Shown in pieces: positions 11,146 through 29,796 of a stretch of DNA of 64,000 nucleotides. The notes beneath the pieces were generated by a model, which did not search any database, was not told where the DNA came from, and saw only the letters and a program-made list of their open reading frames with translations. The first letter of the stretch is position 1; every line of letters starts with the position of its first letter. The stretch is taken from contig CAZRCW010000002.1 of assembly GCA_964598725.1 (NCBI GenBank), forward strand, positions 226,282 to 290,281, given 5' to 3'. This DNA is from an uncultured Gammaproteobacteria bacterium (GTDB lineage Bacteria > Patescibacteriota > Patescibacteriia > 2-12-FULL-60-25). Both the position numbers and the translations under genes were made by a program.

Positions 11146-11416
11146 AGGGCGTTCTGAAAGTCGTAAACGAGCACTTCTGCCCGTCTGATTTTCTGGGAAC
11201 CAGAGCCGCGAAGCAATTCTTCAAGGCTTGAGAGTGAGGTCGCTCTTTCCCAACTCGACCTACCACACAACGTTTAATCACCTCGACGTCGCAACATACG
11301 TCCCGGTGTCAATGGATTTCGAGGCCGTCAGTCAAGGACGGTCTGCCTTCATCTCGTTCGGCCACGGTGGCCAGCGAGCGTCTTCTCCACGCCTTGAGTT
11401 CACGGAGAGTCATCCC

Positions 11417-12814
11417 ATGAAGCGTTTCGCCCTCAAGTCCCTCGTTCTCATTCTCTCGATCGTCGCTGGCAGCACCCTCACGGGCTGCAGCCAGCAGTCC
11501 GAGCGCTCCGCCGCCTTCGACCGCCGCATCGGCGCCCTCGAGGACGCGGGCCCCCGCGTCATCGCGGCGCCCACGCCGGCCCCCGCGCCCACGCCGGCCC
11601 CCGCGCCGGCCCCCGGCGCGGCGCTCACAGACGAGCAGTCGCGCAACTTGGCGACCCTGGCGTACTGCACGCCCGGGCTGCCCAACTACTGCACGGCCGA
11701 CTGCGACGGCGACGACATCGCCAACTGCGTCGACGCCTGCCCCGCGCAGAGCGAGGGCACGGAGGCGCTGATGAAGGACGCGCGCTACGCCCGGCGCGGC
11801 TGCCTCGACACCGACGGCGACCACGACGGCGTGGGTGACACCCAGGACATCTGCCCCACCATCAAGCGGGGAGACCACGAGGACCTGGCGCGGCGCGGCT
11901 GCCCGAGCCCCGACAGCGACAACGACGGCGTGTTCGACAACAACGACGAGTGCCGGCTCATCCCGGTCCACTCGCCCGCCACGCCGACCGCCCCCGCGGC
12001 CGACGCCCAGCACGCCGGGTGCCCCGTCGACGCGGTCCGCGACCCGGACAGCGACGGCGACGGCGTCCGCGACGAGCGCGACGAGTGCCCGCACGAGGTC
12101 GCCGGCGACGATCCCCACCCCGCGCGGCTCGGCTGCCCCGACGTCGACACCGACCACGACGGCCGGCCCGACCGCTGGGACGGCTGCCCGCGCATCCCGG
12201 TCTGGTCGAACCTCACGCAGGGCGCGCCCGACGCGGGCGACTACCCCGGGTGCCCCGAGGGCATGACCCCGACCAACGACGCGCCGCCCGCCATCGCGGA
12301 TGCCGGCACGCCGACCCCCACCCCGACGACGGCCGACGCCGGCAACGCGCCCAACGCGCAGCCCGCCAGCGTCGCGGTGGTCCCGACCCCCGTCGCACCG
12401 CCCGCCCCGGCACCCGCGCCCACGACGACCACCCGGTCGATCGACGGCGCGGACCTGGTGACCGAGCTCACCCGGCTCATGCGCCTCAACGGCGGCGGTG
12501 ACGTCGCTGCGCAGGCCTTCTGCGAGGAGGCGATCGCCAGCGACATCGCGGCGCACAACCCCAACGACGAGTGCCCGGCGGGCGCCCTCTACTGCTTCCG
12601 ACCGGTGACGGCGGGGCGGCAGGTGGCGAACTGCACCGGCACGAGCGTGGACCTCGCGGGCTGCACCCTCGAGGGCAACGGCCACGTCCGCAACGTCTGC
12701 GTCCCCAACACGGGCGTCCAGATCCGCTGCGGCGCGTCGATCCTGACGTGCGACGTGCCGACGCTCGCCGGCGCCATCGCGGCCCGGCCGCGCTCGCGCC
12801 GCCACCACCGCTGA
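11417..12814 (+). CDS. GC-rich lipoprotein with thrombospondin type-3-like calcium-binding repeats and a Cys-rich C-terminal domain
   Basis: GGAGAG lies 8 nt before the ATG at 11417. The signal peptide plus lipobox is MKRFALKSLVLILSIVAGSTLTGC, followed by a PAPAPT linker. The repeats are DTDGDHDGVGDTQDICP, DSDNDGVFDNNDECR, DPDSDGDGVRDERDECP and DVDTDHDGRPDRWDGCP. GC3 is close to saturation. Confidence 0.8.
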   Translation: MKRFALKSLVLILSIVAGSTLTGCSQQSERSAAFDRRIGALEDAGPRVIAAPTPAPAPTPAPAPAPGAALTDEQSRNLATLAYCTPGLPNYCTADCDGDDIANCVDACPAQSEGTEALMKDARYARRGCLDTDGDHDGVGDTQDICPTIKRGDHEDLARRGCPSPDSDNDGVFDNNDECRLIPVHSPATPTAPAADAQHAGCPVDAVRDPDSDGDGVRDERDECPHEVAGDDPHPARLGCPDVDTDHDGRPDRWDGCPRIPVWSNLTQGAPDAGDYPGCPEGMTPTNDAPPAIADAGTPTPTPTTADAGNAPNAQPASVAVVPTPVAPPAPAPAPTTTTRSIDGADLVTELTRLMRLNGGGDVAAQAFCEEAIASDIAAHNPNDECPAGALYCFRPVTAGRQVANCTGTSVDLAGCTLEGNGHVRNVCVPNTGVQIRCGASILTCDVPTLAGAIAARPRSRRHHR

Positions 12815-20925: not shown

Positions 20926-20954
20926 TTGACTTTTTGGCTAATTTATGCTAAACT
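20926..20954 (+). promoter_or_regulatory. Sigma70-like promoter TTGACT-17-TAAACT with TGc extended -10
   Basis: It reads ttaTTGACTttttggctaatttaTGcTAAACTccc. By hand alignment, 21 of 29 positions are identical to the promoter at 11117. Confidence 0.5.
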
Positions 20955-21466
20955 CCCCTGTTCTGGACGCCTGCCTGTGGCTAAATCTTGGCCATACACA
21001 GGCGACCGGAACCGCTCTTTTACCCCACCCTCCGGACGCACGGAATCCCGTGAACGAGATTATCGACGGCCTAGTCCAGCGTTTTGCGCCTTTCATCGAG
21101 GCGCTTATCCAGCGCATTCTGCGCTTCTACAACGAGAAGCTCGTCGAGCTCACCCAGCTCTACGAAGCGCAGATCTCAAGAATCCGCCAAGAGACCGAGC
21201 ATGCCGGCGAACGGCTCGTCATGAGCGGGATCAACGCCATCGGGCACGGCTTCTGGCAGCTCGTGCTCGCCAACCTCGTGATCTCGATCATCCTCGGCAT
21301 CCTCCTCGTTGTCGCGCTCTTCTTCTACGTACGCTACAAGTGGCGGCGCTGGCGCTGGGAGCCGCGGATGCTCCAGGCAACGCTCGATCAGAACGAGCTT
21401 ATCCGAGAGAGCAACCGGCTGGCGGCAGAAGCGCTCAAGCAGCGCTCAAAGCAGCCCGAACCGTAA
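20945..21466 (+). CDS. Moderately GC-rich orphan ORF: coiled-coil protein with one TM helix (start uncertain)
   Basis: This is the maximal ORF. The ATG at 20945 lies inside the predicted promoter spacer, so the real start may be the in-frame GTG at 21050 (VNEIIDGLVQRF...). The TM helix is FWQLVLANLVISIILGILLVVALFFYV, followed by RYKWRRWRW. Confidence 0.5.
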   Translation: MLNSPVLDACLWLNLGHTQATGTALLPHPPDARNPVNEIIDGLVQRFAPFIEALIQRILRFYNEKLVELTQLYEAQISRIRQETEHAGERLVMSGINAIGHGFWQLVLANLVISIILGILLVVALFFYVRYKWRRWRWEPRMLQATLDQNELIRESNRLAAEALKQRSKQPEP

Positions 21467-21579: not shown

Positions 21580-22998
21580 CTATTTCAACGTTTGTAGCTT
21601 TTTCACCTCCGCCTTGAACTGATCACCTCGGACTTTATAGTTTGGGAATAATCCAAAACTTGCACAGGCTGGTGAGAGTAAAACAACATCTCCTGACTGA
21701 GCAGCCCCTTTCGCCACCTTCACGATCGATGGCATGTCTTTCAATCCCTCAATCACCGGGATGTGTTTTGCGTTTGGAAAATTCGCAAGCGCTTCCTTGA
21801 TACGCGACCACTCATCACCGATCCCAATAATGCAGCGGATATTTTTTGCGTCCTCAATCGTGTGCGCTAATTCGGTGAAATCGCTCGCTTTATGCGAACC
21901 TCCTAAAATCAACACTTTGGGAGCAGTAAAAGCTTGAATCGCAGCGACTGCCGTTTCTGGTGTAGTTGAAAATGAGTCATCGTAATATTTTACCCCGTTC
22001 ACTTCGCCAGCGAGCTCCAAGCGATGCTCAAGTCCTTGGAAGGTTGAGAGTGTCTCACGAATCACGTCGGTTGAAACGCCTGACAGAGATGCGGCTAATG
22101 AAGCAGCGCAGATATTCTCAAGATTATGCTTCCCCGGCAAAAGAACCTTATTCGTATCGATAATCTTCTCCTCTCTCCCTTTCAAGCGCAGCCAAATAGC
22201 CCTCTCTCTCACGAAACAACCATCACTTTGCTCGATGGTATTCTGGCTCACGAAATATACCCGACCCTGAGTAAATGCTTGCGAATCTGCCGTCGCCGAA
22301 TAATCACGATTAAGAATCGTGATGTCTTGCTCCGTTTGGAATCTCACAATATTTCGCTTCGCAGAAATGTAGTCTTCTAAAGAATCATGATAATTCCCCG
22401 CTCCGTTCGTGCTCGTCCCTAAATGCTCGGACGTCACCATTAGCATCACGGCGATGTGTGGACTCTTGGTAAGATCTTCAAGTTGAAAGCTGGAGAGCTC
22501 GAGGACTACTTTGGAGTCTGGCGAGAGCTGATCTAGAAACGTGAAGGGTGGTTTCCCAATGTTCCCGCCGAGATACGTGTCCTGACCGGCCGCTTTCAGC
22601 ATCCTATAAATCAATGTCGACGTCGTTCCCTTGCCTTTTGTGCCCGTAACTCCAATGATCTTCGCTACGCAGAAGTCGAAAAATAGCTGTGTTTGCGAAG
22701 TGATCACGACACCCGCTTTTTCTGCTGCCAGAATTTCAGGCAGCGAACGCCGAATGCCCGGAGTACGGATGATCACGTCCATTCCCTGCCAATGTGAAAA
22801 CGCGTCTGGTCCAAATATAAATGCAGCACCTGCCTGCTTTAGTTCTTGAATCAACTGCTGATCGATGTCTTGCGCTATTTTTTGATCAAACACGGTCACA
22901 ACAGCTCCGTACTTCAGCAAAAACCGAGCACTTGCCTCGCCCTCTACGGCCAAGCCAAACACAGCGATCTTTTTTCCTTTCAGTTGGTCTTTAGTCAT
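21580..22998 (-). CDS. murD: UDP-N-acetylmuramoylalanine--D-glutamate ligase
   Basis: KIAVFGLAVEGEASARFL is the N-terminal Rossmann-like domain and GVTGTKGKGTTSTLIYRML is the Mur ligase P-loop. The start overlaps the murI stop (ATGA). Confidence 0.9.
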   Translation of the reverse strand: MTKDQLKGKKIAVFGLAVEGEASARFLLKYGAVVTVFDQKIAQDIDQQLIQELKQAGAAFIFGPDAFSHWQGMDVIIRTPGIRRSLPEILAAEKAGVVITSQTQLFFDFCVAKIIGVTGTKGKGTTSTLIYRMLKAAGQDTYLGGNIGKPPFTFLDQLSPDSKVVLELSSFQLEDLTKSPHIAVMLMVTSEHLGTSTNGAGNYHDSLEDYISAKRNIVRFQTEQDITILNRDYSATADSQAFTQGRVYFVSQNTIEQSDGCFVRERAIWLRLKGREEKIIDTNKVLLPGKHNLENICAASLAASLSGVSTDVIRETLSTFQGLEHRLELAGEVNGVKYYDDSFSTTPETAVAAIQAFTAPKVLILGGSHKASDFTELAHTIEDAKNIRCIIGIGDEWSRIKEALANFPNAKHIPVIEGLKDMPSIVKVAKGAAQSGDVVLLSPACASFGLFPNYKVRGDQFKAEVKKLQTLK

Positions 22999-23774
22999 AA
23001 CGATTGGATATCTTGGATGGTAACAGAGTCGTCCAATGTCTGCAGCAAACGGTGCATTTGCTCACGCTCGCCACTCGTGAAAAATCGATGTTTTCCAGAT
23101 AGATCTGTAGGGATCTGCTTTTCTTCAAGCACTCGTTTCACTTGGCGTGCGATCGCTTGACCCGAATCCAAGATCCGCACCTCGGAGCCCAATAAACTTT
23201 GCATTGGTTCTTTTAAGAAAGGGAAATGCGTACAACCCAAGACCAATGTATCAACCTCTTTTTCAATAAATGGTTGTACTACTTCCTTGAGGACCTGTGT
23301 CGCCCGATCTCCTACCAGCTCTCCCTGCTCAACAAGCGGCACGAGACGATCTGTTCCCAGATTCAGTACTTCACAATCTATCGCGAACTGCTTGATCAAC
23401 GCTTGTTGATAGGCACTCTCCGCTGTCCGTGGCGTCGATAAGATCCCAATCCGCCGCTTCTTCGATTCAGCGACCGCCAGCTTGATGGCGGGAACAGTTC
23501 CAATAAATAGCATGTCGGGATATGTGACTCGTAACCGCTCAAGCGTGATAACACTGATCGTATTACAAGCGATAACGATCAATGACACGTTCTGCGTCAG
23601 TAGGAACTGAACGAGTTTTTGAGTCAGCTTCCAAATCTCCTCTTCCGTTTTCGTTCCATAGGGGCAGTTCTTGGAATCGCCGACATAGATCGTTGAGACC
23701 GTCGGTAACAACGTCACCATTTCTCCCCAAACAGTTAAGCCGCCGACGCCAGAATCAAGAATACCGATCGACAT
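22995..23774 (-). CDS. murI: Glutamate racemase
   Basis: Motifs are IGILDSGVGGLTV, IACNT and LGCTHFP. The start MSIGILDSG at 23774 is preferred over the extended ORF. Confidence 0.9.
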   Translation of the reverse strand: MSIGILDSGVGGLTVWGEMVTLLPTVSTIYVGDSKNCPYGTKTEEEIWKLTQKLVQFLLTQNVSLIVIACNTISVITLERLRVTYPDMLFIGTVPAIKLAVAESKKRRIGILSTPRTAESAYQQALIKQFAIDCEVLNLGTDRLVPLVEQGELVGDRATQVLKEVVQPFIEKEVDTLVLGCTHFPFLKEPMQSLLGSEVRILDSGQAIARQVKRVLEEKQIPTDLSGKHRFFTSGEREQMHRLLQTLDDSVTIQDIQSL

Positions 23775-23820
23775 AAGGGTTTTGTTCAGAATAATACGCC
23801 AACCAGCCCCCGACAAACGA

Positions 23821-25225: not shown

Positions 25226-25480
25226 TTACAACATCGGAACCTGCTCAATAAACCACGTGCCTTGAAGCGGGAAGAACACCAAACGGAAGGGGTTCCCGGA
25301 CACATCCGTCACCGAGAAAAATCGTACCTGCTCACGCCCTTCGCGACGTTCATGCCCGAGATGCACCGCCTTCACCGCATATGACCGTGTCTTCCAACGA
25401 AAACGAAGTGGCCTAATGGTTCCGCGGACGAAGACCACGATCACATCAATCGCCTCTCGTTCTTGCGTTCGCGTCTCCAT
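25226..25480 (-). CDS. Small hypothetical protein immediately upstream of dinB
   Basis: 84 aa, METRTQEREAIDVIVVFVRGTIRPLRFRWKTRSYAV...FRLVFFPLQGTWFIEQV. It is on the same strand as dinB and ends 92 nt before it. I recognise no motif. Confidence 0.45.
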   Translation of the reverse strand: METRTQEREAIDVIVVFVRGTIRPLRFRWKTRSYAVKAVHLGHERREGREQVRFFSVTDVSGNPFRLVFFPLQGTWFIEQVPML

Positions 25481-25618
25481 ATAGAACAAAAATAGAACAG
25501 ACGGAATTCTCTGTCAAGAACCGTCGATTTATTTACAAATTATGGGAAATCTGCTACTCTCCTCGGTCCCACAACAATTGGGAACACACGCTTACTATTC
25601 GCCGGCAGAAGGAGGACG

Positions 25619-25918
25619 GTGCTACAGGTAAATGAGAAGGTACTCGACGAGGTACTGAAGATCTACAAAGCTCGCCAGGGAGAAGAACATTCTCTCCCCT
25701 GGGACATGATCGTCGCCCGGGCACGCGCCGAAATCGCGTGTCTGGTCGAGGACGACGTGGAACGCATCTTGAGCCAGGAAGAGCTCCCGGAACTTCGGGC
25801 CGCTTGGCGCAAACGCGACGAACATATCGCCGCGCAGCCTCATCTGTCGCTCATTCAGCGGTTCGTCCGCAAGTACTGCCAGATTCGGCAGGACCGGATC
25901 CGCGACAGCAGAATCTGA
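25619..25918 (+). CDS. GC-rich orphan ORF, 99 aa, helical and charged
   Basis: GTG start just after GAAGGAGGA. The protein reads VLDEVLKIYKARQGEEHSLPWDMIVARARAEIACLVEDD... It is followed 7 nt later by the repeated hairpin module. Confidence 0.55.
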   Translation: MLQVNEKVLDEVLKIYKARQGEEHSLPWDMIVARARAEIACLVEDDVERILSQEELPELRAAWRKRDEHIAAQPHLSLIQRFVRKYCQIRQDRIRDSRI

Positions 25919-25924
25919 CTTACT

Positions 25925-26003
25925 TCTTCGACGCCGCCCATGGCTCCCCGGGCGGCGTCGAATTCGTTCACCACTTTCAGCTTGCATCTTATCCCTAAGC
26001 GAG
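25925..26003 (+). repeat. Hairpin module copy A (44 nt matches copy B at 43/44, plus a downstream CCTAAGCGAG box)
   Basis: TCTTCGACGCCGCCCatggctccccGGGCGGCGTCGAAtTCGTT has a 13-bp stem. ATCCCTAAGCGAG follows at 25991..26003. Confidence 0.85.
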
Positions 26004-26060
26004 TATCGTACCTGTGGGCGTTTCTTGATAAAAAATTGATCCATTCGCTGGAGAACTCCC

Positions 26061-26480
26061 ATGGGGCACAACGCGACGCCTCCTTCCATTCGGCGCTTCG
26101 TCACCTACCACCACCCTCTTCAGTGTGGCATCGATCCAACCGCATTTGACGAGGCTCTTCACTGGATCGAACACCTCGAGATGCTCGACGTGAGCAGCAA
26201 GGAGGCCTGGGAGAGGAACTACGGAACGTGGACCAATGCGGTGAGGCGAGCGATCGCTGCGATCAACGAGCACATCCGACAGCAGCTCGATCCTGAGCTG
26301 ATCCTGCAGGCGATGACGTCTCCCGCCGCAACTGCTGCGCTTAGAGTGGTTGTAGAGATGTCAGACAGCTACGCCAGTGAGGACCTGGTCATGGCCATGA
26401 TCGTACGTGCCTATTACCTCATCCTGCTGAAGAAGGCACCGGACTATCCGCCCACGAGGCGGATCTCTCGCAATCCCTGA
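26061..26480 (+). CDS. GC-rich orphan ORF, 139 aa
   Basis: The ATG is preceded by GGAGA. The protein reads MGHNATPPSIRRFVTYHHPLQCGIDPTAFDEALHWIEHLEMLD... It is followed 12 nt later by hairpin module copy B. Confidence 0.55.
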   Translation: MGHNATPPSIRRFVTYHHPLQCGIDPTAFDEALHWIEHLEMLDVSSKEAWERNYGTWTNAVRRAIAAINEHIRQQLDPELILQAMTSPAATAALRVVVEMSDSYASEDLVMAMIVRAYYLILLKKAPDYPPTRRISRNP

Positions 26481-26491
26481 TCGCACACATC

Positions 26492-26574
26492 TCTTCGACG
26501 CCGCCCATGGCTCCCCGGGCGGCGTCGAACTCGTTTTCTTGACCCGAGCGTCGTTCTCCGTCATCCTAAGCGAG
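26492..26574 (+). repeat. Hairpin module copy B
   Basis: TCTTCGACGCCGCCCatggctccccGGGCGGCGTCGAAcTCGTT, then TCATCCTAAGCGAG at 26561..26574. It ends 15 nt before tRNA-Leu. Confidence 0.85.
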
Positions 26575-26588
26575 CAAAACAATTCCTT

Positions 26589-26675
<87 letters not shown>

Positions 26676-26677
26676 AT

Positions 26678-26712
26678 AAAATAACCACCGAATTGGTGGT
26701 TATTTTGTTTTA
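26678..26712. terminator. Bidirectional terminator (tRNA-Leu and the nitroreductase gene)
   Basis: The sequence is aaATAACCACCgaatTGGTGGTTATtttgtttta. Confidence 0.8.
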
Positions 26713-26729
26713 TCTCTTTTTTTAGTTCG

Positions 26730-27335
26730 TTATGTTCGATACTCAACAATCGTCTCGATCGGCAGACGAATCTTCTTGAACCCTGGCTCGGCTGCATACC
26801 CGATAGGTAAGAGCGCCGTCGGTAGCTTATCGGTGAATCCAAGAATCTCCGCATACTTTGCCGGATCGAAGCCGCCCATTGGACAACTATCGATTCCACG
26901 ATCAGCCGCCGCTAAGATCATCGCCTGAAGCGCAAGATACGTCTGACCCTGCAACCAGTACAAACGCTCGTCCTCTGACTTCGAGAGTAGTGTGCCCATC
27001 GCCATCTTGTTGTAACTCTCTGCAGAAGCAGCACCCGCCGCCTGCTCGATAAGAGTCGTTGTGGTCTTAATGCCCGGAACAGCATCCTTTACGCAAGACA
27101 ACACGAGCAGATGACTCGCATCCGTCACCTGAGGTTGGCCATAGCTCACCTCTCGCAGCTTGCTGCGCAGTTCTGGATTGGTGATAACGGTAATATGCCA
27201 AGGCTGAACGTTAGAGCTAGAGCAAGACAAGCGAGCCGCCTCCAAAATATAGGTAAGGTCCGCGTCAGATACTTTCTTCGTAGGGTCGAATTTCTTGGTC
27301 GCGAAGCGTTTCAGAAGGAGTTCGTGGATCGTCAT
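26730..27335 (-). CDS. Nitroreductase family protein (NfsB-like)
   Basis: MTIHELLLKRFATKKFDP...LEAARLSCSSSNVQPW, plus a C-terminal GFD...LPIGY pattern. Confidence 0.8.
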   Translation of the reverse strand: MTIHELLLKRFATKKFDPTKKVSDADLTYILEAARLSCSSSNVQPWHITVITNPELRSKLREVSYGQPQVTDASHLLVLSCVKDAVPGIKTTTTLIEQAAGAASAESYNKMAMGTLLSKSEDERLYWLQGQTYLALQAMILAAADRGIDSCPMGGFDPAKYAEILGFTDKLPTALLPIGYAAEPGFKKIRLPIETIVEYRT

Positions 27336-27427
27336 AGACGGTGAGCATAGCATGAATAAATAACCTTGCCAACTACTAGGAAATAGTTTATAAATGGCTT
27401 ATTACAGCTAAATTTAGTAAAAACTCG

Positions 27428-27456: not shown

Positions 27457-27639
27457 TCTTCCCATCCTTCGACGCCTCTCAGTGTGGTCTTGGTGACAGG
27501 AATTCACTGAAAGTCGTCGCAACAACTAGCCGCGTAGGCAACGTTCAACCGCCGATCTGGAACAGCTTTTGACACGGCCGCTCCGACCTCGCTGTTTTTG
27601 TCTTTGATTTCTGACATTTTGAATCTCCTTAAAAATTCT

Positions 27640-29796
27640 ATGAATCCTCCCATTCCTCCAAGCGTTCCACCTTCAGGCTCCGGTTCCGGGCTTTCCCCGT
27701 TCCGACCAGGAGTGAATCGCCCAGGACCAGGCTCAGGACGCCCAATGCGTTCTCGCTTCCCAAAACCAGCGCCTTTCTTGCGCTCAAATACGCCCCCACA
27801 ATTTCCAACGCCACCACCGCTCCCTCCGACGAACAATTCCCCACGAATCGTTCCGGCTAGCACCCCCGCCTCTACCGGCGCTTCTTTTAGCGCGCCCGGC
27901 GCCCCTCGCCCACTCGTTCCAGGTCATGGTGGTCCTCGCCCTCAACAGCCAGGTTCCCGACCTCAGGGTCACGGCGGCCCACGTCCAGGCGGACGCGGCG
28001 GCAAACCAGGTCGTGGCGGCAAGCGTGGCGGTCCCCCAGGTGGCGACCTCCCGAACGTCCGCATGACGACCTTCAAGAACAAGCCAACCCACAAGACTGG
28101 GAGTGATGAGGATACCCTCAGCACGACCGGTGAACAGCGCCTCAAGGTTGTGGTGGTTGGTGGGAACGAAGAAGTCGGTCGCAACATGTCGATGCTTGAG
28201 TATGGCAACGACATCATCATTATCGACATGGGTCTTCAATTCCCAGATGAAGACATGCCGGGTGTTGATTACATCATTCCAAACGTTAGCTACTTAAAGG
28301 GCAAAGAGAAGAACATCCGTGGTGTCATCATCACGCACGCCCACATGGACCACATCGGTGGCATCCCTCATATCATGCCGCAGATCGGCAACCCACCGCT
28401 CTTCAGCTCTGATTTGACCTGCGCGATTATCAAAAAGCGTCAGGAAGATTTCCGTCAGTGTCCCCCGCTCAATTTGCATGCCGTCAAATACGATGACGTG
28501 ATTCAACTTGGCTCGTTCAAGGTGGAATTCTTCGGTGTAGCGCACTCCGTGCCAACCTCGATGGGTATCATTATCACGACCCCTTGTGGCATCGTCGTTC
28601 ATACCGGTGACTTCAAACTCGAATCGGGTGAAAAAGCCGGATCCGTCCAGGAAACTGAGAAGTTAAAGGCGCTTGGCGACAAGAACGTTCTCGCGCTCAT
28701 GATCGACTCAACGAACGCGACTCAAACAGGTCGTCAATTGACCGAAGTCGACATTCAGCACAATCTCGACGAGATCATTCAGAACTCGAAAGGCAAGGTC
28801 ATTATCAGCACCTTCGCTTCCATGTTGTCGCGTATCCAGCAGATCATTTTTGCTTGTGAACGCATGGGTCGCAAAGTTGCCATTCTCGGCTTCTCGATGA
28901 GCTCGAACGTTGCCATCGCGCAACAACTTGGCTACATCAAGATGCAGAAAGGCACGCAGATCGAAGCTCGTGATATCCATAAGTATCCAAAGGAGAAAGT
29001 GGCGATCATCTGTACCGGTGCCCAAGCTCAGGAAGGGTCGGCGCTTATTCGCATCGCGAACCATGAGCACCCGATTGTGACGTTGGAGCCAGGCGATAGC
29101 ATCGTCTTCTCGTCTTCGGTTATTCCAGGCAACGAACGTACCGTTCAGCGCTTGAAAGATACCTTGTACCGTGAAGGTGCGAACGTCGTGCACTACCAGA
29201 TGATGGACGTTCACGCCGGTGGTCACGCGCGTCAGGAAGACTTGATCGAAACCCACCAGATGATCAAGCCAAAGTACCTGATTCCAATCGAAGGCAACTA
29301 CTCGTTCTTGTGTGAACACGCCAACGCCGCCGTCCGCGGAGGCTTCAAGCGTGAAAACATCATCATTGCTGACAACGGCCAGATCGCCGAGTTCGACAAA
29401 GAAGGTAACGGCATGTTGACCAACAAGAAGATCACGACCGACTACGTGTTCGTCGATGGTCTCGGCGTTGGAAACACCAACGAGATCGTGCTCCGCGACC
29501 GCCAGCAATTGGCGCAAGACGGCGTCGTCCTCGTGGTAGCCGTCATCGATTCACACACGGGTGCTCCACAGGCCTTACCGGATATCATTTCACGTGGCTT
29601 CGTCTACATGAAAGAACACCAAGAACTGATCACCCACGCCCGCAACAAGGTTGCTTCGATCTTGCGTGACATGGATCCACGTTCGCGTGCCCAAACCAAC
29701 TACTTGAAAGACAAATTACGTGATGAACTCGGCCAATTCCTCTTCGTCAAAACCGAACAGCGTCCGATGATCATTCCCGTGATTATTGAAGTGTAG
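27640..29796 (+). CDS. rnj: Ribonuclease J with an N-terminal Pro/Gly/Arg-rich extension of about 170 aa
   Basis: The beta-lactamase/beta-CASP core has LKVVVVGGNEEVGRNMSMLEYGNDIIIIDMG, GVIITHAHMDHIGG, VHTGDFK and HAGGHARQEDL. The start is ATG 27640 or TTG 27598 (uncertain). Confidence 0.85.
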   Translation: MNPPIPPSVPPSGSGSGLSPFRPGVNRPGPGSGRPMRSRFPKPAPFLRSNTPPQFPTPPPLPPTNNSPRIVPASTPASTGASFSAPGAPRPLVPGHGGPRPQQPGSRPQGHGGPRPGGRGGKPGRGGKRGGPPGGDLPNVRMTTFKNKPTHKTGSDEDTLSTTGEQRLKVVVVGGNEEVGRNMSMLEYGNDIIIIDMGLQFPDEDMPGVDYIIPNVSYLKGKEKNIRGVIITHAHMDHIGGIPHIMPQIGNPPLFSSDLTCAIIKKRQEDFRQCPPLNLHAVKYDDVIQLGSFKVEFFGVAHSVPTSMGIIITTPCGIVVHTGDFKLESGEKAGSVQETEKLKALGDKNVLALMIDSTNATQTGRQLTEVDIQHNLDEIIQNSKGKVIISTFASMLSRIQQIIFACERMGRKVAILGFSMSSNVAIAQQLGYIKMQKGTQIEARDIHKYPKEKVAIICTGAQAQEGSALIRIANHEHPIVTLEPGDSIVFSSSVIPGNERTVQRLKDTLYREGANVVHYQMMDVHAGGHARQEDLIETHQMIKPKYLIPIEGNYSFLCEHANAAVRGGFKRENIIIADNGQIAEFDKEGNGMLTNKKITTDYVFVDGLGVGNTNEIVLRDRQQLAQDGVVLVVAVIDSHTGAPQALPDIISRGFVYMKEHQELITHARNKVASILRDMDPRSRAQTNYLKDKLRDELGQFLFVKTEQRPMIIPVIIEV

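Follow-up and report, generated by a model that had tools for sequence, protein, structure and literature searches.

Several described systems combine hairpins or inverted sequences with small genes or short DNA segments. They include intrinsic terminators and 3' stabilizing stem-loops, repetitive extragenic palindromic (REP) elements and bacterial interspersed mosaic elements (BIMEs), loxP/FRT sites, and the attC sites of integron cassettes. The subject here is a 44-nt hairpin module that is found twice in a 64,000-nt stretch of DNA, the window (contig CAZRCW010000002.1 of assembly GCA_964598725.1). One copy follows each of two small open reading frames (ORF1 and ORF2) in an island that ends at tRNA-Leu(CAG). 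With a probability of roughly 0.55, the module is a sequence-constrained, terminator-like 3' stem-loop of the ORF1 gene unit that was duplicated by the recombinational insertion of ORF2. What looks like a cassette array with att-like sites would then be a dispensable small gene with a terminator-like stem-loop, a tRNA-Leu promoter, and one lineage-specific insertion.

Comparison with described systems

The module resembles intrinsic (Rho-independent) terminators and 3' stabilizing stem-loops, among which are variants whose U tracts are weak or displaced. It is a stable, GC-rich hairpin in the sense orientation, 7-20 nt past the stop codon, and has a U-rich tail in four of the five copies compared. 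It lies directly before the next promoter, and at one stem pair, pairing is kept through a G-C / G-U / A-U series. It departs from these elements in its 10-nt loop, in a U run that is displaced by 4 nt and absent from copy A, and in failing a consensus scan. Ordinary terminators also lack primary-sequence conservation of the kind seen here, which includes the hairpin loop.

REP elements are GC-rich palindromes that are intergenic and located immediately after stop codons. The module shares this position and composition and, like REP/BIME elements, could stabilize the 3' end of an mRNA. It differs in being confined to one locus, where it is conserved as one orthologous element, in its long and perfect stem, and in that no RAYT was found in the window. 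With loxP/FRT sites, the module shares 13-bp perfect inverted arms, an asymmetric conserved spacer, and two direct copies around a small segment. The spacer here is 10 bp rather than 8, no recombinase gene was found in the window, and the site is single and tied to ORF1 in relatives.

Integron cassettes are similar in their tandem ORF-hairpin layout, variable unit number, and orphan genes with atypical GC content at third codon positions (GC3). Their attC sites span 57-141 bp, are bounded by the core sites R'' (RYYYAAC) and R' (GTTRRRY), and fold into imperfect hairpins in which some bases are extrahelical, the central spacer is unpaired, and the terminal structure varies (PMC5027507). The element here is 36 nt (44 nt with its flanks) and has a perfect, bulge-free stem. 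Neither copy has an AAC on its 5' side, and after the 3' GTT, CACC (copy A) or TTCT (copy B) takes the place of RRRY. An attC site was thus rejected, and the integron-type cassette array considered in an earlier, sequence-only reading of this DNA fails on length, core sites, and unpaired features. The island further differs from integron cassettes in that no IntI was found in the window, there is no attI (the left neighbor is the putative DinB-operon promoter), the hairpins are identical in sequence and not merely similar in structure, and the units appear to have their own promoters.

Arrays without a recombinase are also described. The orphan immunity gene arrays of the Vibrio cholerae type VI secretion system (T6SS) are recombinase-free and are explained by homology-facilitated illegitimate recombination (PMC5361080). 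In these arrays and in displaced rhs and contact-dependent inhibition (CDI) 3' ends, as in the island, small genes gather beside a conserved anchor, junctions are repeated, unit number varies, and there is no dedicated recombinase. The island differs from the T6SS arrays in having only two units and an anchor made of hairpin, promoter, and tRNA rather than a coding region, and its mechanism is a proposal. A diversity-generating retroelement was also considered and rejected. Such an element would have variable and template repeats of about 100 nt upstream of the hairpin, mismatched specifically at adenines, and a reverse transcriptase. The 150 nt upstream of the two hairpins are dissimilar (score 14, reached by 867/1000 shuffles), and no reverse transcriptase was found in the window.

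The hairpin repeat

The features of the island are listed below, with coordinates in the window.

25482..25517, minus strand: left island boundary; divergent promoter of the 84-aa ORF and DinB operon, TTGACA-N17-TATTTT (promoter scan)
25519..25618, plus strand: putative ORF1 promoter and 5' untranslated region; TTTACA (25532-25537), 17-nt spacer, TACTCT (25555-25560), AGGAGG (25610-25615)
25619..25918, plus strand: ORF1, 99 aa; fast-evolving member of a small, Uhrbacteria-only family
25925..25968, plus strand: hairpin module A; stem 25927-25939 / 25950-25962, loop AUGGCUCCCC, tail UUCGUU without a U run
25982..26009, plus strand: region after hairpin A with box A, ATCCCTAAGCGAG (25991-26003), a collinear 10-12-nt match to box B
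26042..26059, plus strand: CATTCGCTGGAGAACTCC, including GGAGAA, the putative ribosome-binding site of ORF2, which lies 5 nt upstream of its ATG
26061..26480, plus strand: ORF2, 139 aa; orphan found only in this genome
26492..26540, plus strand: hairpin module B with U-rich tail; stem 26494-26506 / 26517-26529, tail CUCGUUUUCUU at 26530-40
26539..26574, plus strand: putative tRNA-Leu promoter; TTGACC (26539-44), 17-nt spacer, CATCCT (26562-67), with box B at 26563-26574
26589..26675, plus strand: tRNA-Leu(CAG) (ARAGORN; Rfam RF00005, 54.1 bits)
26675..26709, plus strand: native A/U-flanked intrinsic terminator of tRNA-Leu, used as an internal comparison

The two modules form a direct repeat (25925-25968 and 26492-26535) that is identical at 43 of 44 positions. 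The lone difference is a T/C at 25963/26530, just 3' of the stem. The stem, TTCGACGCCGCCC / GGGCGGCGTCGAA, consists of 13 bp with 100% complementarity, encloses a 10-nt loop, and has no bulge or internal loop. As an isolated RNA, the hairpin of each copy is predicted to fold at about -27.6 kcal/mol. The 36-mer that spans stem and loop has two exact occurrences in the 64 kb and is absent from all of 100 dinucleotide-preserving shuffles. The modules begin 7 nt (after ORF1) and 12 nt (after ORF2) past the stop codons, and the distance is ~20 nt in relatives.

The window was compared with syntenic loci of relatives (L-numbers) by blastn and by direct sequence reading. Six lineages are compared at the locus: this genome (W), L002, L003, L004, L082, and L083, with L084-L088 grouped with L002. 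By position, hairpin A corresponds to the single hairpin found after ORF1 in L002, L082, and L083. ORF1, ORF2, the tRNA, and the hairpin all point the same way, and the minus strand of the hairpin has no U tail. A tail of the form YUYRUUUU follows the stem in copy B, L002, L082, and L083 (four of five copies), with the U run starting 4 nt past the stem. The copy B tail, CTCGTTTT, is identical to that of L002, and the sequence after the stem in copy A is UUCGUUCACC.

The sequence-only reading had described two blocks that match at 43 of 44 positions with a 13-bp stem, a gap of 7-12 nt to the stop codon, and a tandem ORF-hairpin, ORF-hairpin, tRNA layout. Re-alignment agrees with the match, the gap is reproduced, and the layout is real. 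All of its counts and positions were in fact recovered, and the sole change concerns the meaning of a second shared box. It was also fair to say that the stem is not simply a canonical terminator, as copy A has no U run and the others have UUUU 4 nt past the stem. The sequence-only reading had seen no recombinase nearby, and no recombinase, transposase, or reverse-transcriptase domain was found among ~35 large ORFs checked across the window.

The exact 36-mer of the hairpin, in the window version, has 0 matches in GTDB representative genomes. A pattern of the stem alone, with any loop allowed, has 0 matches in Joint Genome Institute (JGI) metagenome contigs and viral contigs. A degenerate R/Y form of the hairpin has 0 matches in viral contigs. 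Blastn of the island against a phage database gave no match. Rfam searches, run with gathering thresholds on the whole window and at E <= 10 on 25300-26800, returned the tRNA and nothing real for the hairpin. Its single match at E <= 10, hvt-mir-H, is noise (19 bits vs a gathering score of 96). The sequence-only reading had proposed looking for further copies in related genomes, and none was found beyond the orthologous position in ~1.4 Mb of related Uhrbacteria loci.

Exact window proteins are on record from one NCBI contig of 399,919 bp and one Logan sample, SRR12404947. In exact-protein look-ups, this is the only other sample with the strain, and its contigs end at the repeat and the tRNA. 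Logan contig L001 breaks inside hairpin A. Such a break is expected at a repeat, and the two local copies alone account for it.

Constraint on the hairpin sequence

The hairpin is conserved in primary sequence as well as in shape. Relatives differ from this genome at 3-5 of the 44 positions of the module, against 52-67% of four-fold degenerate sites in the flanking genes (binomial P 1e-11 to 1e-15). Twelve of the 13 stem pairs are invariant. The thirteenth is G-C in this genome, G-U in L083, and A-U in L002 and L082, a series that stays paired only in plus-strand RNA. The variable pair is a hint that the element acts as RNA on the plus strand. Nine of the ten loop positions are constant, and the tail GAAYUYRUUUU is kept in four of five copies. 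Because loop and tail are conserved along with the stem, some factor probably recognizes the sequence besides the shape. Given this conservation across lineages, the two copies in the window can be 43/44 identical without the event having been very recent.

The native tRNA-Leu terminator behaves differently. Its stem core varies by lineage, with ACCACC in this genome, ATCCC in L003, and CTCCGCG in L002, unlike the ORF-linked hairpin. The primary sequence of the latter is kept at a tRNA-like level despite saturated synonymous sites and an ORF1 identity down to 37%. This marks the hairpin as an undescribed, sequence-constrained cis element in the candidate phyla radiation (CPR)/Patescibacteria. 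To our knowledge, almost nothing is known about transcript 3'-end formation in this group.

A coding cause of the conservation was ruled out. A minus-strand gene is called across the hairpin in L002, but the copies in this genome lie in different frames (TSSTPPGEPWAA vs RRRPGSHGRRRR), and the ATG of the loop in this genome is ACG in relatives. In this genome, the loop ATG (intervals 25940-25972 and 26507-26542) opens an 11-codon ORF in copy B (MAPRAASNSFS) and a 69-codon ORF in copy A. These are probably meaningless, since the start codon is ACG in relatives and the ORFs are not conserved. In copy B, a second helix can form between CUCGUUU, at the 3' end of the module, and AAGCGAG in the downstream box. 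The idea that this helix is conserved was rejected, since the box is part of the putative promoter and L002, L082, and L083 differ there.

Relatives with zero, one, or two units

The number of ORF-hairpin units differs among the lineages. L003 and L004 are empty sites. In L003, window position 25518 joins 26538 with 13 nt between, and L004 is similar with about 24-40 nt between, its left homology stopping at 25501. Both lack ORF1 and the hairpin and keep both flanking putative promoters, and the DinB-operon promoter nearly abuts the tRNA-Leu promoter. L002 (with L084-L088), L082, and L083 have one unit, in the order DinB, 84-aa ORF, ORF1 homologue, one hairpin, TTGACC-N17-CATTCT, and tRNA-Leu. 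Two units, ORF1 with hairpin A and ORF2 with hairpin B, are found in this genome only.

A neighbor-joining tree of DinB and the 84-aa protein places L003 between (L002, L082) and L083, with this genome and L004 on the other side. L003 is nested among ORF1-bearing genomes and has therefore lost the unit. A match between the 13-nt filler of L003 and the foot and tail of the hairpin would be a relic of that unit, but it is too short for significance and is a hint only. Among metagenome loci anchored on the 84-aa neighbor, none was confirmed. In L006, another Uhrbacteria locus, an ordinary terminator occupies the same position before the tRNA-Leu promoter.

The sequence-only reading had set a mobile module against a plain duplication present as two copies in every sibling. 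The siblings are polymorphic, with zero, one, or two units. They do not include the empty site that was predicted, namely one module directly before tRNA-Leu; empty sites have no hairpin, and sites with a single module always carry ORF1. A mobile module is not supported. The hairpin is not bound to moving cassettes, and in four lineages it is a strongly conserved 3' element of ORF1 that is passed on vertically. The proposed insertion bracketed by duplicated sequence fares better, as ORF2 is flanked by the duplicate in the way that an insertion would be.

The putative tRNA-Leu promoter and the second box

The second shared box, CCTAAGCGAG, is found at 25994-26003 and 26565-26574, i.e., 69 and 73 nt past the module starts. 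The sequence-only reading had paired both boxes with the hairpins. Both are present as described, but the box is not a separate module. The tRNA-side copy, box B, is the -10 hexamer and discriminator of a conserved promoter-like motif assigned to tRNA-Leu, an ancestral element that is also seen in island-free genomes. The layout is present in all six lineages, including the empty sites L003 and L004, and many other Uhrbacteria loci have TTGAC(C)-N17-CATnnT before their tRNA-Leu(CAG) gene. Box B lies within this conserved putative promoter and is therefore not part of a mobile module.

Box A, together with the upstream CTTGCA (CTTGCA ... ATCCCT), is possibly a decayed duplicate of the tRNA-Leu promoter. 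The similarity of the boxes is marginally above chance, at ~0.002 (estimated) if collinearity is required. The same region possibly holds a weak ORF2 promoter, TTGCAT-N16-TATCGT.

The pre-tRNA leader varies among close relatives. A 10-bp hairpin, TCACGTCATT-TGCG-AATGACGTGA, lies between the -10 hexamer and the tRNA-Leu start in L002 (9080-9103) and L082 (5690-5713). L083 has other hairpins there, and this genome, L003, and L004 have none.

ORF1 and ORF2

ORF1 is a fast-evolving gene of one Uhrbacteria family. It is 37% identical to its homologue in L002 (8617-8958; E 8e-19). A profile of these two proteins retrieved only three other clusters among 5.8 billion proteins, which map to L002 with L084-L088, L082, and L083. 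The homologues have 112-113 aa, and ORF1 of this genome lacks their 14-codon C-terminal tail. Its dN/dS is 0.26-0.28 among L002, L082, and L083. GC3 is 0.71 compared to 0.55 in the core genes of the genome, frame 0 scores best, and GC periodicity is of the coding type. These features argue that ORF1 is a real gene.

The elements upstream of ORF1 appear to be its own promoter. The layout TTTACA-N16/17-TAGACT is kept in L002, L082, and L083 (TTTACA-N17-TAnnCT overall), and blastn aligns this genome with L002 up to 25583. No Pfam, PHROG, or PADLOC family was found for ORF1, with PADLOC giving sub-threshold noise only. The protein is predicted to be all-helical with four helices, at an AlphaFold2 (AF2) predicted local distance difference test (pLDDT) score of 63, and neither this low-confidence model nor the sequence has a meaningful match in the PDB. 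The family has a conserved basic C-terminal helix, YCxIRQ(D/E)RxRDS.

ORF2 is an orphan. It matches only itself among 5.8 billion proteins and is absent from all 89 related loci. HMMER searches against 1.84 billion representatives gave weak, repeat-boosted matches (E ~4e-4) to proteins with Y.RRFGSW..AL repeats, and one of these proteins has an HNH motif at its end. ORF2 also matches a PHROG HNH endonuclease at E 0.05, and tblastn against the phage database gave no match. Its GC content by codon position is 0.59/0.44/0.73, so GC3 is 0.73 vs 0.55 in core genes, and its own frame scores best. The codon-usage score is weak, at 0.036 bits per codon vs ~0.2 for core genes. The protein is predicted to be all-helical (AF2 pLDDT 48), and searches of the PDB by fold, at this low confidence, and by sequence gave no meaningful match.

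The region of CATTCGCTGGAGAACTCC upstream of ORF2 resembles the stretch between the stop codon of the ORF1 homologue and the hairpin in L083 (score 26, reached by 1/300 shuffles) and in L002 (8/300). Window-wide, nhmmer gives this resemblance an E of 7.6. A relic of the ORF1 tail and spacer upstream of ORF2 is suggestive only, and the matches are too short for significance. Tandem duplication of the ORF1-hairpin unit as a whole was rejected because ORF1 and ORF2 are unrelated in protein and DNA.

Proposed origin of the second unit

The ORF1 gene unit would be self-contained, with its own promoter, ORF1, and hairpin, and would sit between the promoters of the DinB operon and tRNA-Leu(CAG) in one Candidatus Uhrbacteria clade. 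The hairpin most likely ends the ORF transcript, protects it, or both. It most likely also shields the tRNA-Leu promoter, 10-35 nt downstream, from read-through. The unit would be ancestral and dispensable, having been lost in L003 and being absent from L004. In this genome alone, ORF2 (~490-570 bp), a foreign or young gene, would have entered between the hairpin and the tRNA promoter. Candidate routes are a Campbell-type single crossover with a circle, unequal exchange, and homology-facilitated illegitimate recombination. Recombination would be anchored on the hairpin-promoter-tRNA segment and would need no dedicated recombinase. The insertion would have left a second copy of the hairpin, and probably of part of the promoter, such that ORF2 ends with the same hairpin. 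The result would be a promoter-flanked slot before tRNA-Leu in which whole promoter-ORF-hairpin units are gained and lost without a recombinase, a form of orphan-gene turnover in a reduced genome.

Several observations weigh against this reading. The loop measures 10 nt, the U run starts 4 nt beyond the stem and is absent from copy A, and a consensus terminator scan makes no call. The native terminators of the genome are different, being A/U-flanked with AT-rich stems. Covariation consists of one pair in five sequences (GC:2, GU:1, AU:2, all paired) and lacks significance by itself, as 147/500 shuffles reach its score. The conservation, which includes nine of ten loop positions, exceeds what selection on structure only would give and hints at a specific binding partner or a role at the DNA level. 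The 36/36 identity of the two copies also fits a recent site-specific integration. The recombination route is reconstructed from sequence, and the similarity of the post-hairpin flanks is marginal; gapped local alignment of these flanks is not significant, as 191/1000 shuffles reach the score.

Alternative explanations

Conservation of loop and tail to the same degree as the stem, far above neutral expectation, would also be expected if the hairpin were mainly a sequence-specific regulatory target, either an RNA stem-loop or a DNA palindrome, of the ORF1 protein, an RNA-binding protein, or an RNase. Termination would be secondary or absent, and the duplicate would extend this regulation to ORF2. 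ORF1 and the hairpin occur strictly together, both being gone from empty sites, and ORF1 has the conserved basic C-terminal helix. ORF1 has no detectable nucleic-acid-binding domain or structural match, however, and conservation of 37% for the protein against ~90% for the hairpin is unusual for a co-evolving protein-site pair. This explanation is unlikely as the main account, though it overlaps with the terminator-like stem-loop and does not exclude it. Alternatively, the 36-bp element could be a double-stranded loxP/FRT-like site served by a recombinase encoded elsewhere, with ORF2 a circular mini-cassette in an integrase-less slot. Two directly oriented, 36/36 identical copies flank ORF2, and arms and spacer are both strongly conserved, as for a protein-recognized site where spacer identity matters. 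Unit number varies (0, 1, or 2) among relatives, and the copy B tail matches the chromosomal tail of L002 while that of copy A differs, which fits a crossover inside the hairpin. Sites of tyrosine recombinases typically have an overlap of 6-8 bp, which the 10-bp spacer exceeds. No recombinase was found among the ~35 large ORFs in the 64 kb or called within +/-6 kb of the L002 and L082 loci, and no other cassette with the element was found in any collection scanned. The presence/absence boundaries of the ORF1 unit fall at the two promoters and not at the hairpin, four lineages have a single site that is always linked to ORF1, and the L083 variant pairs only as G-U in RNA. A lox-like site is accordingly rated as quite unlikely. 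Much the same low weight is given to the broader pair of ideas that a cassette slot before tRNA-Leu is served in trans, gaining and losing small orphan genes that each bring one copy of the site, with ORF2 as a recent capture, or that ORF1-family proteins bind the hairpin as a new kind of sequence-specific RNA motif. If the hairpin were a recombination site, it would define a new and very simple cassette system.

The second unit could also be purely local in origin. The hairpin-promoter segment would have been duplicated in tandem, ORF2 would be a chance or de novo frame, and the second hairpin would be a neutral relic. ORF2 has no homologue anywhere searched and has a weak codon-usage score, and both the possible decayed promoter copy (box A) and the possible ORF1-tail/spacer relic would fit. 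The 420-nt body of ORF2 has no similarity to ORF1, the flanks, or the rest of the window, so it is not duplicated local DNA. Its coding-type GC periodicity, best score in its own frame, and GGAGAA site also oppose a chance frame, and 43/44 identity would persist in a neutral relic only if it were very recent or maintained. Local duplication is therefore improbable, to about the same degree as the lox-like site. A dispersed repeat family, either of REP/BIME-like palindromes or of miniature inverted-repeat transposable elements (MITEs), is very unlikely. A GC-rich perfect palindrome right after stop codons, and the break of L001 inside it, would suit such a family, but the window has only two copies, at a single locus, and relatives have one at the orthologous site. 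The lack of matches in GTDB representatives (exact window version), the JGI metagenome collection, and the viral collections, and of a RAYT or transposase in the window, argues in the same direction.

Neighboring genes

RNase J, encoded 1 kb to the right of the island, has its closest relatives in Candidatus Uhrbacteria and in Patescibacteria metagenome-assembled genomes. The gene order is tRNA-Thr, 173-aa ORF, MurD, MurI, DinB, 84-aa ORF, island, tRNA-Leu, nitroreductase, and RNase J. To the left of the island, all genes are leftward except the 173-aa ORF, and the nitroreductase is leftward as well.

The peptidoglycan genes 2 kb from the island differ among lineages. This genome has MurD (472 aa) and MurI, an Asp/Glu racemase (21580-23816, minus strand). 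At the same position, all four relatives checked (L002 4181-6783, L003 4674-7276, L004 5140-7739, and L082 792-3394) have a 410-aa Mur ligase, 32% identical to MurD of this genome, and a MurL epimerase (PF26299/PF26298). One route for adding D-glutamate to peptidoglycan seems to have been swapped in place for another, and the replacement of the pair points to recombinational gene replacement in this lineage.

Gene content also varies to the right of tRNA-Leu. A nitroreductase (26730-27353 in the window, minus strand) is present in this genome, L003, and L082. L004 has nothing there, L002 instead has a gene with a weak DUF3592 match, and L082 has two extra ORFs. Both sides of the locus thus appear to be gene-flux hotspots without any integrase.

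The conserved 84-87-aa ORF (25226-25489 in the window, minus strand) lies directly upstream of the Y-family polymerase. It has ~82% identity among relatives and a weak DUF6504 match (E 0.088), and its product is probably a small accessory subunit co-transcribed with DinB. The promoter of this operon, at the left boundary of the island, is identical in this genome, L002-L004, L082, and L083. A direct repeat, TAGAACA-AAAA-TAGAACA (25482-25499), overlaps its -10 region and is identical in all six lineages. The repeat is a candidate SOS/LexA-type operator for Uhrbacteria, though it is a direct repeat and not a palindrome.

RNase J has a Pro/Gly-rich, low-complexity N-terminal extension of ~150 aa (27598-28050), with GC up to 0.66, that aligns only with the closest relatives. 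The 173-aa ORF (20945-21466) beside tRNA-Thr has a GC3 of 0.78 and no known domain. Here, in contrast to ORF2, genes close to it in size (176 aa) are called at the matching position in L082 and L084 (L002). A very GC-rich gene (up to 74%) at 11228-12814 contains thrombospondin type-3 repeats (calcium-binding DxDxDG), which account for the tandem direct-repeat families in that interval.

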